Shown here piece after piece: positions 17,541 to 61,875 of a stretch of 64,000 nucleotides of DNA (its first letter is position 1; each line of letters starts with the position of its first letter). The notes beneath the pieces were generated by a model. It saw only the letters and a list, made by a program, of their open reading frames with translations, had not been told where the DNA came from and did not search any database. A program made the translations under genes and the position numbers. This DNA comes from an uncultured Clostridia bacterium (GTDB lineage Bacteria; Bacillota; Clostridia; Christensenellales; UBA1242), in NCBI GenBank assembly GCA_937895935.1, contig CALBKX010000004.1, positions 99 through 64,098 on the forward strand, read 5' to 3'.

Positions 17541-17892
17541 AGGCGGGTAAATTATTCGCTTCGCTTAAGGATGACGCCTTAAAGGGCGTCATAACCCGCT
17601 CATCGAACTAATTTACCCGCCTTAGGGGAAGCCACTTGGCGAAGCGGGGCTCCGAAGTTTGAATTTACTTATGGATGCGGTTCTAAAGCTCGCATAACCC
17701 GTAAATTCAAATCAAAACACCTTTAGGGGAATAAAACCACTTGGCGAAGTATATCTTCGCGGGTGTTTTTTTTATAATTGGGTAAATTATTCGCTTCGCT
17801 TAAGGATGACGCCTTAAAGGGCGTCATAACCCGCTCATCGAATTAATTTACCCGCCTTAGGGGAAGCCACTTAACGAAGCGGGACTCCGAAT
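17541..17892 (+). repeat. three tandem GC-rich structured repeat units (A 17541..17657, B 17658..17773, C 17779..17892); candidate ncRNA or repeat family
   Basis: Each unit is a long hairpin (A/C arms GGGTAAATTA / TAATTTACCC; B arms TTTGAATTTAC / GTAAATTCAAA) followed by the tail TAGGGGAA..CCACTT(GG/AA)CGAAG and a small hairpin. A and C are near-identical. B shares the structure and the inner motif GGATG.CG...TAAAG..CG.CATAACCCG. The orientation given is only that of the motif as read. Confidence 0.65.
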
Positions 17893-18127
17893 ATTTTTCT
17901 CCCCTGCCAAGGGGAGGTGGCAGTTATGAATTGACTGACGGAGAGGTTTTTTTATGCTTTCCCTTATGTAAATGCTTGCTATGGCAAACGAGATTTGACT
18001 ATAGAGTTTCCCTTAATTTTTCTCTAGCGATTTGCTATTCAAAATATTATACTTGTTTTTTTAATCAAACAACTAGTTTTGTGGTGAGCGAAGCATTAGG
18101 CAATAATATTTATATTTACATTCAATA

Positions 18128-33303: not shown

Positions 33304-34383
33304 ATGCTAGAAAAATCTTTAAAATTTAAACAAAGATATGATGAACTAACTGGACTTATCGTAAAACCAGAAATTATTGCAGATAACAAGGAATGGAAAA
33401 AATTAGTCAAAGAAAGAAGCGGACTAGAAGAACTTGTTGAAACAAGAGATAAATTGGAGAAAGTTATAGATGAACTTAATAAAAATGAGGAAAGTTTACA
33501 CACTGAAACTGACCACGAGATGATTTCTTTATATAAAGAGGAAAATCACGAACTAAAAGCACAAAAAAAGGAATTAGAAAATAAGCTTCAAATTTTACTC
33601 CTTCCAAAAGATGAAGACGATGATAAAGATTGTATTTTGGAAATACGAGGTGCAGCAGGTGGGGAAGAGAGTGCTCTTTTTGCTAGTGTGCTTATGAATA
33701 TGTATATCAGGTTTGCAGAAAGAGAACATTGGAAGTATGAAATTAATGATATATCAGAAACTGAACTTGGTGGTATTAAAGAATGTTCTATTACCATTAG
33801 AGGTAAAGATGTTTTTAGTAAAATGAAGTACGAAAGTGGAGTGCATAGAGTTCAAAGAGTGCCAGAAACTGAGAGTCAGGGAAGAGTCCACACATCAACC
33901 GTAACTGTTGCCGTTTTGCCTGAAGTGGAAGATGTTGATGTGGAAATTTTAGATAAAGACATTAAAATTGATACATATCGTTCTTCTGGAGCGGGTGGCC
34001 AGCACGTTAACAAAACAGAAAGTGCTATTAGAATTACCCATTTCCCTACAGGCATAGTTGTAACTTGTCAAGACGAACGTTCTCAAATTAAAAATCGTGA
34101 AAGAGCTATGAGCATTTTAAAATCAAAACTTTATAATTTCTATAAAGAACAGGCTGATAGCAAATATGCGGCAAATCGTAAAAATCAAGTTGGAACGGGG
34201 GATAGGAGTGAGAGAATCAGAACTTACAATTATCCACAAGGAAGAATAACTGACCATAGAATCAATTACTCTATCTTTAATATGGAGCCATTTTTAGATG
34301 GAGATATGGAAGAATTAATCAAAGCATTACAAACGGCCGACCAACAAGCAAGACTAGAAGCTTTGTCAGATGAATCCAAGTGA
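33304..34383 (+). CDS. prfA: peptide chain release factor 1
   Basis: PET tripeptide (RVQRVPETESQGRVHTS) and the GGQ motif (SGAGGQHVNKTESA). Confidence 0.95.
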   Translation: MLEKSLKFKQRYDELTGLIVKPEIIADNKEWKKLVKERSGLEELVETRDKLEKVIDELNKNEESLHTETDHEMISLYKEENHELKAQKKELENKLQILLLPKDEDDDKDCILEIRGAAGGEESALFASVLMNMYIRFAEREHWKYEINDISETELGGIKECSITIRGKDVFSKMKYESGVHRVQRVPETESQGRVHTSTVTVAVLPEVEDVDVEILDKDIKIDTYRSSGAGGQHVNKTESAIRITHFPTGIVVTCQDERSQIKNRERAMSILKSKLYNFYKEQADSKYAANRKNQVGTGDRSERIRTYNYPQGRITDHRINYSIFNMEPFLDGDMEELIKALQTADQQARLEALSDESK

Positions 34384-34534
34384 TTTTCTTAATTTAAGCA
34401 AAATTTTGTATTGGTGTGTTTTATACAAAAAGATTAACGCCAATTTGTGTTATTTGCAAATGATATTTAAATGTCGATTTTAGCCAATACTTTCGATAAT
34501 AAAAAAAATCCTTACATATGTAAGGATTTTTTGT

Positions 34535-34609
34535 TGGAGCGAAAGACGGGGCTCGAACCCGCAACCGCAGGCTTGGGAAGCCTGTGCCATACCATTAGGC
34601 CACTTTCGC
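34535..34609 (-). tRNA. tRNA-Gly (anticodon CCC), CCA encoded
   Basis: Hand-folded cloverleaf: acceptor GCGAAAG/CTTTCGC, anticodon stem CAGGC/GCCTG with loop TTCCCAA, T-loop GTTCGAGC, discriminator T plus CCA. 75 nt. Confidence 0.9.
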
Positions 34610-34850
34610 ATTACTTTGAAATATATCACAAAAAAATAAAAAATGCAAGCGACCTATATTAATTTAACGTTTTTAGGTAAAATTGGGCAGAGGGGTGGGT
34701 GAAAAAGATTTGCTCTTAATTTAAAAAAAGTTTTATATAACATACTATCAACTTGTTTTTAAATTCAAGGTTATTATTTTGCAAAAAAAACACATTGGTA
34801 TATCAATTTTAAATTACTAAAATATTTGAAAATACCTTTGAATATTAGCA

Positions 34851-34879
34851 TTGACAACAAGGTTGAGCATTAGTATAAT
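34851..34879 (+). promoter_or_regulatory. consensus sigma-70 promoter
   Basis: TTGACA, 17 nt spacer, TATAAT. Lies 19 nt upstream of ATG 34898, which has an AGAGGG RBS. Confidence 0.7.
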
Positions 34880-34897
34880 ATTTATAGAGGGTTAACA

Positions 34898-35551
34898 ATG
34901 GAAGAATTAGATGAATTAATTATTGATGATGAAGAATTAGAAAAATTAGTTGAAGAATATAAAAAAGCAAAAGGTAATGATTTTTTTGTGTTTCCTTTAA
35001 AGGACAGAATAAAGTTATTTTTAGCTTTTATAAAAGATTCAAATTATAAAAAAAGTTCTTTTGATGAGATTGATGATTTTAAATTGTTGTTTTTTTCTAA
35101 AGAGGAATTGGAAAAAATCAATATCTTTAACATCAATAATCATTTAATGACTTTTATTATAGGTGATAAACTTAGTAGGGAAAATAAACTAATTGTTTTA
35201 TTTAGCGAAAAAGGCGTGAAAAAAGACCAAGAACTAAATGCAAGCAATACTTGTGCATTTGAAATATCCTTTAAAGACCATTCAGCAAAAAAAATTGGCA
35301 TTACAGATTTAAAAACCAATATTGTCAATAAAACATATATTGTTCGTGATTTTAGTTGTAAGCAATTGGGAAATGATGTTAATAAACTTGAAAAAACTGT
35401 ACAAAATGAAAATTCTGATAAAATTTTAGACAAAAAACAATCCGTTGAAAAAACAGTTCAAGACGAAAAGAAACAAGTTGAAAATGACTCGAAAGAATTA
35501 AATGCTGCTTTTGAAACTTATTTGGGAGCATCAATTTGCAAGCAAGCTTAA
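34898..35551 (+). CDS. hypothetical acidic protein with short internal repeat (EKTVQNEN / EKTVQDEK)
   Basis: Long ORF with a consensus promoter and an RBS. No recognisable domain. Confidence 0.6.
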   Translation: MEELDELIIDDEELEKLVEEYKKAKGNDFFVFPLKDRIKLFLAFIKDSNYKKSSFDEIDDFKLLFFSKEELEKINIFNINNHLMTFIIGDKLSRENKLIVLFSEKGVKKDQELNASNTCAFEISFKDHSAKKIGITDLKTNIVNKTYIVRDFSCKQLGNDVNKLEKTVQNENSDKILDKKQSVEKTVQDEKKQVENDSKELNAAFETYLGASICKQA

Positions 35552-35587
35552 ATGCAAATAATTACAAAAATTATAAAAGGTTAGTTT

Positions 35588-35830
35588 ATGAAATATAAAG
35601 AAACAATAAATGTGCTGAAAGAACGAAACGAAGAACTTTTGTCGTATTATTTACAAATTGATGATGAGAAAAAGGTTAATTTGCATTTTGTTATAAAATC
35701 TATTTTAGCAACAAACAAGCCGTTTTCTAGGCTTGATGCAGATGTTTCAATGAATATTTTAAAAGATTTAAATTATTCAGATGAAGAATGTTTTGATATT
35801 TATAAAGTTTTGCTTTTTAAACATAATTAA
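35588..35830 (+). CDS. hypothetical small protein (80 aa)
   Basis: AAAGG RBS. Co-oriented with and 36 nt after the upstream gene. Terminator downstream. Confidence 0.5.
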   Translation: MKYKETINVLKERNEELLSYYLQIDDEKKVNLHFVIKSILATNKPFSRLDADVSMNILKDLNYSDEECFDIYKVLLFKHN

Positions 35831-35904
35831 AAACTTAAAAATTTAAATTGTTTGATAGTTTTGATGCAAATAAATTCAAAATAAATTTCAAATTTGTAGT
35901 TTTT

Positions 35905-35955
35905 GAAATGAACTCCATTTTTGCGGTGCAATAATGGAGTTCATTTCATTTTGCT
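35905..35955 (+). terminator. intrinsic terminator (15-bp stem)
   Basis: GAAATGAACTCCATT / AATGGAGTTCATTTC followed by a T-rich tract. Confidence 0.7.
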
Positions 35956-36062
35956 TTATTTTTATATATGGATTTATATAAATTCAAAATTTTCTAAAAT
36001 TTATTGTCACTTTTGTTTTTATTTGTGTTAAAATATATAAGTTTTAAAGGAGAATGAAATAT

Positions 36063-37346
36063 ATGAAAAAAATAATTCCTATAACTTTACTTACTGGTTA
36101 TTTAGGAGCAGGAAAAACAACACTTTTAAACTATGTGCTTTCTAATCAACAAGGTTATAAAGTTGCTGTTATTGTGAATGATATAGGCGAGGTTAATGTT
36201 GATGCAAGTTTGATTGCAAAAGGTGGCATTGTGAATGAAAGTGGCGACAGCCTTGTGCCTCTTTCAAATGGCTGTATTTGCTGTACATTAAAAGAAGATC
36301 TAATGAAACAAATAGCATCTATAGCCGCATCAAATAAGTTTGACTATATTTTGATTGAGGCAAGCGGTATTTGTGAACCAGTGCCTATTGTTCAAACTAT
36401 TCAAGTTTTAAGCGAAGCCACAAAACGTTATAATTTACCTACAGAAGTTAGGTTGGATAATGTTGTATCTGTTGTGGATGCTTGTAGGCTAGTTGACGAG
36501 TTTGGTTCAGGTAGAAATCTGCTTAAAGAAGAAATTGAAGAAGAGGATATAGAAAATTTGATTATCCAACAAATTGAATTTTGCAATAAAATAATTATCA
36601 ACAAAGTTAGTTCAATTTCAAAAGAACAATTAGATGAAGTGAAAGCGGTTGTTAAAGCGCTTCAACCAGAAGCTGAAATTATAGAAGCAGATTTTGGTAA
36701 AGTTGATTTAGGTAAAATTTTAAATACAAATTCTTTTGATTTTGAAAAAGCATCTATGTCGGCTGCTTGGGTTAAAGAATTAAATGCCCAAAGCGAAGAA
36801 GATGATGACGATGATGATGAAAAAGAACATCATCATCACCACGATGACAAAGATGAGCATGCTGAGGACGAACACCACCACCACGATGACGAAGACGAAG
36901 AAGACGACCATGATGACGATGAAGAAGAGCATCACCACGGACATCATCACCACCATCATCACCATGGAGAAGGTGAAGTGTTGGAGTATGGAATAGATAC
37001 TTTTGTTTATACTAGAAGACAACCATTTAATAAACAAAAATTTATCAACTTTGTAAATAATTTCCCAAAAAGCGTTATTAGATGCAAAGGAGTTATGTGG
37101 CTTAGCGATGATGAAGAAAATATGCATATGTTTGAACAGGCTGGCAAGCAAAAGAGTGCCTTTAATGCTGGACCTTGGGTGGCAAGCCTTAATGAAGAAC
37201 AGCAAAAACAAATTTTGTTAGAAAATGCCGATATTCGTGCTGACTGGAGAGAGGATGTAGGTGATAGAATAATCAAACTTGTGTTCATTGGCAAAAATAT
37301 GGATAAAAAAGAAATTGTTAAAGAATTAGATGATTGTTTAGAGTAA
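36063..37346 (+). CDS. CobW/G3E-family GTPase (zinc metallochaperone-like) with long His/Asp/Glu-rich insert
   Basis: P-loop GYLGAGKTTLLN and the CxCC motif GCICCT. Contains about 60 aa of EEDDDDDDEKEHHHHHDD...HHHGHHHHHHHHGEGE. ATG 36063 is preferred because AGGAGA lies 9 nt upstream. Confidence 0.85.
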   Translation: MKKIIPITLLTGYLGAGKTTLLNYVLSNQQGYKVAVIVNDIGEVNVDASLIAKGGIVNESGDSLVPLSNGCICCTLKEDLMKQIASIAASNKFDYILIEASGICEPVPIVQTIQVLSEATKRYNLPTEVRLDNVVSVVDACRLVDEFGSGRNLLKEEIEEEDIENLIIQQIEFCNKIIINKVSSISKEQLDEVKAVVKALQPEAEIIEADFGKVDLGKILNTNSFDFEKASMSAAWVKELNAQSEEDDDDDDEKEHHHHHDDKDEHAEDEHHHHDDEDEEDDHDDDEEEHHHGHHHHHHHHGEGEVLEYGIDTFVYTRRQPFNKQKFINFVNNFPKSVIRCKGVMWLSDDEENMHMFEQAGKQKSAFNAGPWVASLNEEQQKQILLENADIRADWREDVGDRIIKLVFIGKNMDKKEIVKELDDCLE

Positions 37347-37447
37347 AATATCAAAAGTAAATTTTGAAACTAATTCAAAAATTATGCTAACGCACTATGC
37401 AAAATATTTGCATTTAAATTTTCAATGCGTAAACACTTAAAATATGC

Positions 37448-37476
37448 TTGACAAGGCTATTGACTTATGTTAAAAT
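37448..37476 (+). promoter_or_regulatory. promoter of rplM-rpsI
   Basis: TTGACA, 17 nt spacer, TAAAAT. About 100 nt of leader precede the rplM ATG. Confidence 0.6.
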
Positions 37477-37585
37477 CACATTGTCTTTGCTTTAATAAGG
37501 CATATTTTTTTGTGAAAAAGCCCCTCACTTTAAATATAAATTTGATAAGCAAACATTAGAAGAAATTATAGGAGAATCAAATAAA

Positions 37586-38029
37586 ATGAAAACATTTATG
37601 GCAAAACCAGAAAATGTGCAAAGAAAATGGTATTTAGTTGATGCAACAGATATGCCTCTTGGCCGTCTTGCTTCACAAGTTGCTGATATTTTATCAGGCA
37701 AAAACAAACCTGACTTTACACCTCACGTTGATACTGGTGATTATGTTGTAATTATAAATACAGATAAAGTTGTTTTAACAGGTAAAAAAGCTGTTCAAAA
37801 ACAATTTAGAACTCACTCTGGATATATTGGTGGTTTAAAAGAAACAAACTATGGCACTATGCTTGCTACAAAATCTGATGAAGTTGTTTTAAAAGCAGTT
37901 AAAGGTATGCTTCCAAAAACAGTTCTTGGAAGAAAACAAGCTACTCGTTGCAAAATCTATAAAGGTGCAGAGCACGAACAATCTGCTCAACAACCAGTTG
38001 TTGTAGAGTTAAAAGGAGCAAGAAAATAA
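37586..38029 (+). CDS. rplM: 50S ribosomal protein L13
   Basis: The N-terminus [19 protein letters not shown] is a typical L13 N-terminus. Confidence 0.95.
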
Positions 38030-59655: not shown

Positions 59656-61065
59656 TTAATTTACCAAAAATTCTGTTCCATTTGGTGTATCTTTTAAAGT
59701 AATACCTTTTTGTAAAAGTTCATTTCTAATTTTATCTGCTAAAGCATAATCTTTTTGTTTTTTAGCATTTAACCTTTCTTCAATTTTTTCATTTATATAT
59801 GCCAATAATTCGCCGTCTAATTGCTCTTTGTTGCTATTTAACAAATTTAAACCCAAAACCTTGTCAAAATCTTCCACTAAGTATTTAATTGTTGCGGTAT
59901 TTAATGTTTCATCTTTTAAAACGTCATACAAGCAGGTAAGAGCAAGTGAAGTGTTTAAGTCATTTGATAAAGCATCGGCAAATTGGGTTTTGTACTTATT
60001 AACTTTTTCTTGATTTATTTCACCTGACGTATTTAAAGTTAAATTTTTTGTTTTTGCAAGTAATTTTTTGTATGCTGAATTAGCACCTTCAAATTTATCA
60101 AAATTAAACGTTAACGGATTTCTATAATGTGATTGTAAACAAAACAATCTGTACACGAGTGGATTATATCCTTTTTCGATTAATGAATCTACCGTTATAA
60201 AATTGCCCTTGCTTTTACTCATTTTCCCGTTTTCATTTTTTAAATGTTGTACGTGAAACCAATAATTACACCATTTATGTCCTAGATAACTTTCTGATTG
60301 TGCTATTTCATTTGTATGGTGAGGGAAAATATTATCAACTCCACCACAATGAATATCTAAATATTCACCTAAATATTTTAAACTTATTCCAGAGCATTCA
60401 ATGTGCCAACCCGGATAACCAAGTCCCCAAGGGCTCTCCCATTTTAATTCTTGACTATCAAATTTTGATTTTGTAAACCATAATGCAAAATCGCTTAAGT
60501 TACGTTTGTTATTATCAGCCTCAACACCTTCTCTTGCACCAACAACCATTTCATCAGCTTGGTGATTAGTGAGTTTATAGTAATCAACCAATTTACTAAC
60601 ATCAAAATATACGTTTCCGCCTGAGATGTATGCATATCCTTTTTTTAATAAGGTTTCAATTAATTCTATGTATTTGTCAATGCAAGAAGTAGCCTTTACA
60701 ACAATTTGTGGCCAAGAAATGTTAAGAGCTTTACAGTCTTTTTTAAATGCTTCTGTGTAAAAATTAGCAATATCCATAACTGATTTGTGTTCTTTTTTTG
60801 CACTGGCAATCATTTTATCTTCACCCGTATCACTATCACTTGCAAGATGTCCAACGTCTGTTATGTTCATAGCTCTTGTAACTTTGTATCCTAAATAATT
60901 TAATGACTTTTCTAAAATGTCTTCCATTAAGTATGACCTAAGATTGCCAATATGAGCAAAATGATAAACTGTCGGACCACAAGTATACATTTTTACTTCA
61001 CCTTGTTTATTTGGAACAAATTCTTCCACTTGTCTTGTAAGTGTATTATAAAGTTTGAGTGTCAT
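59656..61065 (-). CDS. cysS: cysteine--tRNA ligase
   Basis: The HIGN (FAHIGNLRSY) and KMSKS (GKMSKSKGN) motifs. ATG 61065 (MTLKLYNTLTRQ) has an AAAGGAG RBS; the track's extension to 61164 is unlikely. Confidence 0.92.
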   Translation of the reverse strand: MTLKLYNTLTRQVEEFVPNKQGEVKMYTCGPTVYHFAHIGNLRSYLMEDILEKSLNYLGYKVTRAMNITDVGHLASDSDTGEDKMIASAKKEHKSVMDIANFYTEAFKKDCKALNISWPQIVVKATSCIDKYIELIETLLKKGYAYISGGNVYFDVSKLVDYYKLTNHQADEMVVGAREGVEADNNKRNLSDFALWFTKSKFDSQELKWESPWGLGYPGWHIECSGISLKYLGEYLDIHCGGVDNIFPHHTNEIAQSESYLGHKWCNYWFHVQHLKNENGKMSKSKGNFITVDSLIEKGYNPLVYRLFCLQSHYRNPLTFNFDKFEGANSAYKKLLAKTKNLTLNTSGEINQEKVNKYKTQFADALSNDLNTSLALTCLYDVLKDETLNTATIKYLVEDFDKVLGLNLLNSNKEQLDGELLAYINEKIEERLNAKKQKDYALADKIRNELLQKGITLKDTPNGTEFLVN

Positions 61066-61143
61066 AAAATCTCCTTTTAACTTAAGTTTAAGTGTATCAC
61101 AATGGTTTTTTGTTTGGCAATCTTTTTGAAAGATATTTAAAAA

Positions 61144-61422
61144 GATGTAAATGTTTGCTTTCACTTTGAGCTTTGCATTTAATCACCAAGTGACGGTTAA
61201 ATGCTACTCGGGTATCGTTCAAGCAAAACATTTACATCTAGGGGCAAGAGGCCACTTGGCGAAGCAAGTTCTTCGAAGCATTGCAATGTTTGCTTAAGGC
61301 TCAAGCACTACGGGTTTTTGCTTACATAACTACGAGCAAAACCTTTTGCGATAAACTCGCTTAAAGCAAATCATTTACATCTTGTAGGGAATAGGACACT
61401 TGGCGAAGTGAAGGCTTCGAAG
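61144..61422 (+). repeat. two tandem structured repeat units (D 61144..61279, E 61280..61422) of the same family as 17541..17892
   Basis: Unit D has hairpin arms GATGTAAATGTTTGCTT / AAGCAAAACATTTACATC and tail TAGGGGCAAGAGGCCACTTGGCGAAGcaagttCTTCGAAG. Unit E has arms AATGTTTGCTTAAG / CTTAAAGCAAATCATT and tail TAGGGAATAGGACACTTGGCGAAGtgaaggCTTCGAAG. Confidence 0.6.
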
Positions 61423-61500
61423 AAAATTACAGGGTTTAAATGATTACTTATGCAAAGTTTGTTATTAATTTTTTTTTAAAATTGTAGACTAAGCGTTTTT

Positions 61501-61549
61501 TCATAAAAAACACACCTTTAAAAGAGTTTAACTTTTAAAGGTGTGTTTT
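61501..61549 (-). terminator. intrinsic terminator of the small membrane protein gene
   Basis: AAAACACACCTTTAAAAG / CTTTTAAAGGTGTGTTTT forms an 18-bp stem. The T-run is on the minus strand. Confidence 0.8.
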
Positions 61550-61647
61550 AAATTGTTTGTAGAAAATATTGCAATTTAATAATATTTTATTTTCATATTT
61601 TGTAATTTACTTTATTGTTTTTTAACAAAACTTCATATTTTGTATTA

Positions 61648-61875
61648 TTAAAAGCAACAAACAACCATTCCTGCTAAAATCAATACAAAACCAACAGTTA
61701 ATATAATAAGGTAAGTACGATCACTTTTATCAACTTCGCTTTGTTTTTTTATTACTCTTGTTAATTTTTTTGCAATTAAAACTGTTGCTATTCCAAGAAT
61801 TATAAAGGATAACCCAGCAATTCTTGCAGCAGAAAGAATCCATTCACTAAAAGCGTATAACATTAAACTAAACAT
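61648..61875 (-). CDS. small two-TM membrane protein (75 aa)
   Basis: GGAGG RBS, two hydrophobic helices, and a strong terminator downstream. Confidence 0.6.
   Translation of the reverse strand: MFSLMLYAFSEWILSAARIAGLSFIILGIATVLIAKKLTRVIKKQSEVDKSDRTYLIILTVGFVLILAGMVVCCF

Follow-up and report, generated by a model that had tools for sequence, protein, structure and literature searches.

The cysS Locus and Its Two Upstream Units

The window, that is, the whole 64,000-nucleotide stretch of DNA analysed, comes from the genome of an uncultured gut Clostridia species, 1.36 Mb in size with 30% G+C (G000), available as a draft of 64 contigs with an estimated completeness of 100%. The cysS coding sequence occupies positions 59656..61065 on the minus strand, with its ATG at 61065 placed after AAAGGAG. 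Divergently to this gene, on the plus strand, two units designated D (61144-61278) and E (61279-61422) lie side by side. A promoter-like site for cysS (TTGCCA, 18 nt, TG-n-TACACT) is located on the minus strand at 61091..61120, 24 nt from unit D. The first-pass annotation had proposed the same hexamers with the same spacing and these proved real, with TACACT additionally preceded by TG, but it had set the -35 hexamer 5 nt too high, the true coordinates being 61120..61091. On the far side of the units, a bidirectional terminator-like hairpin (61507..61549) closes the upstream minus-strand gene, a small membrane ORF at 61648-61875. Read along the minus strand, the order is small ORF, bidirectional terminator, E, D, promoter-like site, AAAGGAG and the cysS ATG. 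Units D and E are antisense to both neighbouring genes, each on the minus strand, yet they are oriented with the leading strand. A scan of 60950-61700, including the stretch just upstream of D, revealed no promoter-like site on the plus strand, and D and E are presumably transcriptionally silent.

Both units were recognized on the plus strand by a covariance model built on 15 genomic units (140 bits for D and 105 bits for E). Unit D begins with an S module of the S1 type (61144..61238), delimited with RNAfold, the models R1 and R2 and the covariation of both helices. It has a 17-bp outer stem (61144-61160 with 61221-61238) and an inner hairpin (61175-61204) with the loop ACCAAGTGAC at 61185-61194. 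Its T tail (61239..61278) consists of TAGGGGCAAGAGG followed by the core CCACTTGGCGAAG (61252-61264), a 6-nt loop and CTTCGAAG. Unit E has an S module of the S2 type (61279..61382) with a degraded 5' arm (CATTGCAATGTTTGCTT), and a T tail (61383..61422) whose core ACACTTGGCGAAG (61396-61408) is mismatched at its first base. The predicted fold of unit D is a 95-nt hairpin followed by the small tail hairpin (-43.4 kcal/mol, z = -4.2), while unit E alone gave a less convincing fold (z = -1.3).

The shared tail CCACTTGGCGAAG-N6-CTTCGAAG reported for D and E by the first-pass annotation was confirmed letter for letter (CACTTGGCGAAGCAAGTTCTTCGAAG at 61253-61278 and CACTTGGCGAAGTGAAGGCTTCGAAG at 61397-61422), and this pattern was matched twice in the window as opposed to 0 matches in 100 shuffles. 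Neither tail has a GTGG arm or a T-run, the next bases being CATTGC after D and AAAATT after E. Neither was called as an intrinsic terminator by the terminator scan, the sole call there being 61507-61549.

D and E Belong to a Modular Repeat Family Confined to the Lineage

The covariance-model search and the genome-wide count of copies suggested by the first-pass annotation were performed and the neighbouring genes tabulated. The S+T model, built from the 15 units, gave 52 matches in the window's genome, in which about 37 same-strand arrays were counted and the T tail was found 41-42 times. The suggestion that D and E belong to one family with the units at the lysS locus held, as the T tail is common to both and the model based on S1 and S2 modules finds the lysS-type units, though weakly. 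D and E are thus two tandem units of a new, lineage-restricted, modular family of hairpin repeats. The first-pass annotation had not picked up its genome-wide extent, the placement of arrays at stop codons or the complementarity between the tail and tRNA-Cys. The D-E dimer, including its junction, is also present at a normal gene end (C39:26604-26881).

The modules that could be told apart were S1/S1b/S2 (the D/E type), S3/S4 (the lysS type), T, a linker L, Q and P. They are arranged in the order S-T-(S-T)n-(Q)-P on one strand only (12 plus to 0 minus in one example), with up to 14 modules in a row. The S module is a hairpin of 80-100 nt whose stem sequences vary between copies with pairing kept. 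Its conserved internal motif reads TTCACTT..TTCG, hairpin, then ..A(A/G)TCGTTCA, and the fuller core motif TTCACTnAGGyTTCG, hairpin, then CTGCAaAAaTCGTTCA. The T module opens its small hairpin with the invariant core CCACTTGGCGAAG and has in its complete form the composition (A)AAGCCAC-TTGG-CGAAG, 6-nt loop, CTTCG-(A/C)(A/G)G-GTGG, T-run. On the gene strand, the complete T was called terminator-like at two loci (the lysS array and C39:26856), and by its sequence it resembles an intrinsic terminator.

The array at the end of lysS (17542..17948, plus strand) begins 1 nt past the lysS stop codon and carries the same tail as D and E on different hairpins. It is composed of S3 (17542-17621), T, S4 (17658-17721), a complete terminator-like T (17724-17770), S3 (17780-17856), T and P (17894-17948). 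The P module (TTTTTCCTCCCCTGCCAAGGGGAGGTGGCAG..GACGGAGAGGTT) was found at 17894-17948 and at about 39 other places in the genome, equals S and T in abundance and usually ends the arrays. Its first hairpin agrees in 14 of 15 bases with the anticodon arm of tRNA-Ser(GCU); an ungapped exact-match test of the module gave nothing above shuffles. Many full S units are preceded by short, imperfect direct repeats derived from their 5' arm (ATGTAAA(C/T)A, 2-4 copies; for example, C21:20-57, C36:203-215 and C55:40268-40296), a pattern suggestive of slippage at this end or of several rounds of partial copying. The largest direct-repeat family of the window is a different one, a coding repeat rich in GAT/GAC/CAT/CAC at 36794-36966 that is translated into a run of Asp, Glu and His.

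The distribution of the family is patchy, covering 3 of 11 congeners and one other genus among the 58 sampled in the family. The S core is present, apart from the window's genome, in two congeners (G010 and G001) and in the one other genus (G073). In a 400-genome sample of the order, the S-core model gave no match outside the window's genome, with the best 10 candidates scored per genome and sensitivity accordingly limited. Three elements with the S-core motif were observed in G073 (loci L148, L151 and L154), having an outer stem of about 30 bp (AAAGGGGTCAAGTTTACTAAATTGTGCATTG...) and no T tail. The exact tail motif was found in none of 185,579 species genomes. Metagenome contigs yielded 56 stretches with this motif, of which 19 came from two same-species assemblies and were all 99-100% identical where compared; the remaining 37 were chance matches without S+T units.

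Many of the 64 contigs break off within the repeats, and better assemblies of the same species (99-100% identical) join them through the arrays. The repeats thereby break draft assemblies and, with unit numbers that differ at other arrays even among 99.7%-identical assemblies, they are usable as strain markers.

The Hairpin Structure Is Conserved by Compensatory Changes

In an alignment of 39 units from three species, fitted to the model and therefore somewhat favouring the structure, 93.9% of the cells were paired and 28 of the 30 pairs were changed on both sides. All shuffled or slid controls of this alignment collapsed. Both helices covaried strongly and, judging from the aligned copies, the structure is under selection. 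One S unit could be followed at an orthologous site, located 2-4 nt past the TAA of a surface-protein gene (...GYRKYMY*) in G000, G010 and G001. The stems found there differ in sequence between the species with their complementarity kept, that is, the changes are compensatory.

The non-gene strand was predicted to fold better in 30 of the 31 S units, by 5.8 kcal/mol on average and with 96 versus 40 G-U pairs. One inherited apex motif (ACC...GAC, or GTC...GGT when read from the opposite strand) accounts for most of this difference, so that the copies cannot be counted as independent evidence. The better folding of the antisense strand fits poorly with a function as 3'-UTR RNA.

The first-pass annotation had also noticed that the interior CACCAAGTG of unit D (61184-61192) is complementary to the tail CACTTGGCG in 8 of 9 positions. 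This complementarity, of 7-8 nt, was confirmed for D, but it could not be maintained as a feature shared by the family, as the pairing is perfect in only 5 of 15 aligned units and absent from E-type units and from the copies of other species. A pseudoknot between loop and tail was accordingly rejected: facing an invariant tail, the loop takes several forms (AAGTG, AAATG, AAGAG, AATTG, AAAAG) with no compensating change, and neither E-type loops nor those in G010 and G001 pair with it.

Arrays Mostly Begin at Stop Codons and Follow the Direction of Replication

About 25 of the roughly 31 arrays led by an S module begin 0-30 nt past a co-oriented stop codon, and about 17 begin 0-4 nt past it, with ORFs called by our own simple caller. 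At seven loci, the 5' arm of the element itself, GATGTAAATGA, contains the TAA or TGA with which the ORF ends. The family therefore starts almost at the stop codon and sometimes supplies it. The genes that bear arrays are unrelated and encode LysRS, AspRS, EF-G, Era, MreB, rubrerythrin, patatin, an aminotransferase and others. D and E are among about five arrays situated away from gene ends. The local GC skew has the sign that corresponds to the array orientation in 35 of 37 cases, which places these arrays on the leading strand. No array followed a lagging-strand gene, as compared with 15% of ORFs being lagging (P about 0.018).

Since the arrays normally begin within a few bases of the stop codons of leading-strand genes, their position suggests that they are co-transcribed as the 3' UTR of the preceding gene. 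From the same placement, the arrays may also act as terminators. About 25 housekeeping genes would then owe their 3' UTRs and terminators to the repeats. The sole RNA run holding the organism (X25) covered a few lysS fragments and none of the arrays.

The Invariant Core of T Is Antisense to tRNA-Cys

As a reverse complement, the invariant 13 nt CCACTTGGCGAAG match nt 6-18 of this genome's tRNA-Cys(GCA) exactly, in 13 of 13 positions, a match length reached by 0 of 300 shuffles. The 3' arm of T repeats this tRNA segment in the sense direction, in a degenerate form that is nearly perfect at C28:1955. As the core is antisense to this segment and the 3' arm a degenerate sense copy of it, the T module reads, from its sequence, as a fold-back of a tRNA-Cys fragment (nt 6-18 of the host gene). 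Among other genomes, the 13-mer occurs within the tRNA-Cys gene of G009, G001, G010 and G005, being its sole copy in G009 and G005, and the majority of other genera in the family lack it, so that the tail corresponds to the tRNA-Cys variant of the genus. No other module showed similarity to tRNAs above shuffles, including S3/S4 compared with the initiator tRNA and P compared with the anticodon arms of tRNA-Ser and tRNA-Gly.

The core might be a working anti-tRNA-Cys site and not a fossil, serving either as the primer-binding site of a tRNA-primed, retroposon-like element or, scattered over 3' UTRs, as a site at which tRNA-Cys or its 5' fragments are captured; this is unlikely. Either version, if true, would represent an undescribed kind of bacterial element or regulation, and a functional tRNA match would point to an undescribed way for small repeats to spread or act in the reduced genomes of gut Clostridia.

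According to the second version, the S-T units would function as RNAs, either on their own or as part of 3' UTRs, and their T core would act as a sponge or a guide-target site by pairing with tRNA-Cys or 5' fragments of it. The exact 13-nt complementarity coincides with the invariant core, is directed at the genus's own tRNA-Cys variant and is conserved across three species, and the core variants (C to U, A to G) would retain G-U pairing, all of which is consistent with such a role. The same variants, however, also keep T's own hairpin, and nt 6-18 are buried in the folded tRNA. All T-bearing species share an identical tRNA-Cys. Moreover, T is missing from some S units of G001 and from all those of G073, and the RNA run X25 covers no array. 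A functional RNA of this kind appears quite improbable.

A separate tRNA-related duplication was observed at C29:3415-3670 of the window's genome. A tRNA-Gly(GCC) gene is followed about 140 nt on by a second copy of its last ~30 nt with ~30 nt of flank, which forms an att-like direct repeat around a small insert; genes for tRNA-Cys and tRNA-Leu lie just downstream.

D and E Are a Recent Insertion and Not a cysS Leader

The location of the units upstream of an aminoacyl-tRNA synthetase gene, with a tail related to the cognate tRNA, would be expected of a cis-regulatory leader of cysS transcribed from the minus strand, either an atypical T-box or another attenuator sensing tRNA-Cys. Adjacency to cysS and the tail sequence are the two points that speak for it. 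On the cysS strand, however, the tail has the sense of tRNA-Cys and is unable to pair with that part of the tRNA. The promoter-like site separates the units from the start codon, being downstream of them in the direction of cysS transcription, and the conserved orientation of the units corresponds to the opposite strand, on which grounds a T-box as a 5' leader was rejected. Covariance models likewise gave no T-box match, with stem I, the specifier loop and the T-box sequence all sought via Rfam: no T-box or other relevant match was obtained at the gathering score in the whole window, nor was there any match at E up to 10 in 60900-61700, and the lysS locus gave none either.

Comparison with relatives points the same way. 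The S+T model detected no unit within 1.5 kb of cysS in any of 10 congeners, and the order of small ORF, terminator and cysS is kept in G001, G010, G005, G008 and G002 with a unit-free spacer of 150-230 nt. A sheep metagenome contig spanning the locus in a strain about 96% identical skips exactly 61150-61284, which corresponds to unit D. The 11-nt sequence AATGTTTGCTT is found at both edges of the skipped segment, and the strain retains a single E unit with an intact 5' arm (GATGTAAATGTTTGCTT). The search for empty sites in strain X5, performed over 20 kb of contig C55, gave a clean result only at the cysS locus, as contigs break at the arrays. Because the units are absent at cysS in congeners and unit D is missing in the ~96%-identical strain, D and E are a recent, species-specific, strain-variable insertion with a varying number of units and not a conserved cysS leader.

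The view of the first-pass annotation that the units are not a cysS leader was thus upheld: they are neither a leader nor a T-box, given their site between the terminator and the promoter-like site, their absence in congeners and the loss of one unit in a close strain. With like units following about 25 unrelated genes in addition, control of cysS by D and E is highly improbable. The flanking of aminoacyl-tRNA synthetase genes at both loci, pointed out by the same annotation, proved to carry no significance, since the roughly 37 arrays follow functionally unrelated genes and the link to the synthetases is a coincidence. The estimated chance expectation for two anti-tRNA-Cys motifs beside cysS is about 6%, which was counted against reading D and E as a passenger and could mean that their presence exceeds chance. 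D and E are regarded as a passenger with no role in the control of cysS. The locus as flagged is an ordinary further copy of a dispersed repeat and no new riboswitch, and a false lead is removed.

How the Family May Spread

The whole of the evidence favours, with a probability of roughly 0.7, a non-autonomous, selfish, mosaic repeat family similar to BOX, SPRITE and REP elements, with D and E as a passenger without a role at cysS. The mode of spread and the function at the RNA level that we infer are as follows. The hairpins of the family would be kept through selection on a single-stranded form. Copies would survive at gene ends where they are harmless, or where they are useful as a 3'-end hairpin and terminator, and the unit number would shift via recombination between adjacent units.

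No candidate partner was detected in the genome. The Y1/RAYT transposase (PF01797) gave 0 matches in the draft of 64 contigs, with control genomes positive. A scan of the small contigs for an autonomous element revealed only IS1-like and IS1182-like ORFs (C19 and C46), a serine recombinase and phage genes, none of which carry the modules. The array junctions show no constant target duplication, and for none of the complete arrays could a clean empty site be recovered. Four small contigs (C37, C44, C45 and C48) consist of phage-like genes, including capsid, tail and microvirus-like ORFs, and may be prophage fragments or binning passengers in the MAG.

A reverse transcriptase was also considered as a partner and found unsupported, as the one present in the genome sits in a DGR cassette and presence of the enzyme in relatives does not track the elements. 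The cassette (C60:~34100-37700, locus L182) contains an Avd-like ORF of 139 aa and a reverse transcriptase of 351 aa with flanking genes for variable-protein/tail-fibre-like products, and is probably prophage-borne.

The corresponding alternative is a retroposon-like element, in which a primer derived from tRNA-Cys would anneal to the T core and start reverse transcription of the sense transcript, and the antisense cDNA hairpin would enter the lagging strand at transcribed gene ends. Such a cycle would account jointly for a host tRNA match that is exact and constantly renewed, for T lying immediately 3' of S, for the dependence on transcribed gene ends, for the better folding of the antisense strand and for the leading-strand orientation of 35 of the 37 arrays. 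It is opposed by the enzymes, as G000 has no dedicated reverse transcriptase beyond the DGR one, G073 has elements and no reverse transcriptase, and G004, G005 and G008 have reverse transcriptases and no elements. In addition, the complementarity ends at nt 6 and nt 18, and a cleaved primer would be hypothetical. No tRNA-primed retroposon-like bacterial element of such a kind is known, and this route is considered very unlikely.

Alternatively, a host protein, for instance a recombinase or a factor of the nucleoid or of replication, could recognize the T palindrome and the S core as double-stranded DNA, with the hairpin potential as a by-product. T resembles a recombinase core site in being an imperfect palindrome with arms of 13 bp and 12 bp around a 6-bp spacer, the orientation of the arrays follows the direction of replication and the unit number differs among strains. 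The spacer, however, varies between copies, which would make strand exchange between them hard, and the compensatory changes through the 17-bp and 7-10-bp stems favour selection on intramolecular pairing and not on a motif. DNA sites of this sort therefore seem an improbable origin of the conservation.

The selfish, non-autonomous repeat family remains the preferred reading. Selfish decay fails to explain the S core kept in G073 or the S unit at the orthologous site in three species, and some host-level function for the S units is possible.

Comparison with Known Repeat and Leader Systems

With T-box leaders, units D and E share their location next to an aminoacyl-tRNA synthetase gene and a sequence related to the cognate tRNA. 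They differ in lying on the wrong strand and in the wrong position, without a specifier loop, T-box sequence or antiterminator, and in not being conserved at cysS, with the family present at dozens of unrelated genes.

By analogy, the family appears closest in kind to the pneumococcal BOX and SPRITE repeats and to REP/BIME elements (PMC3184786, PMC2817692). BOX elements of Streptococcus pneumoniae, boxA-(boxB)n-boxC, are modular with a variable number of units, have a strong predicted RNA structure, are co-transcribed and possess no transposase of their own (PMC3184786). The likeness, compared by description only, consists in distinct modules in a fixed order, variable copy number and an intergenic location, met here in about 37 arrays. 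Unlike BOX, the family is anchored near stop codons, lies nearly always on the leading strand and has a tRNA-derived invariant core. The review of pneumococcal repeats also describes one that mimics an intrinsic terminator and is biased to gene 3' ends (PMC3184786). The complete T module behaves alike but forms only a component of larger arrays, and in D and E it is cut down and not terminator-like.

REP/BIME elements are extragenic palindromes with compensatory evolution that form mosaic arrays at gene ends (PMC2817692). Compensatory palindromes clustered at gene ends are found here too. REPs near stop codons reportedly affect translation of the upstream gene, as Liang, Rudd and Deutscher are said to have described in Mol Cell in 2015. 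In contrast to REP/REPIN-RAYT systems, the window's genome has no RAYT/Y1 transposase and the units carry no GTAG-type tag, and at 115-145 nt they are 3-5 times longer than a REP (20-40 nt). Units are co-oriented within the arrays, whereas BIMEs alternate.

MITEs such as Correia/NEMIS, RUP and ERIC resemble the family in size (~100-150 nt), in high copy number, in patchy distribution among species and in the presence of terminal inverted repeats, represented here by the 17-bp outer stem of S, GATGTAAATGnTTGCTT with AAGCAAnnCATTTACATC. The inverted repeats of the family, however, vary between copies while staying complementary, and its placement with respect to strand and stop codon is strict. 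No target-site duplication was seen at the junctions and no cognate IS was found among the IS-like ORFs of the small contigs. The start at the stop codon, the orientation by replication direction and the invariant core antisense to tRNA-Cys are features that the described BOX, REP and MITE families do not combine and that occur together in the family to which D and E belong.
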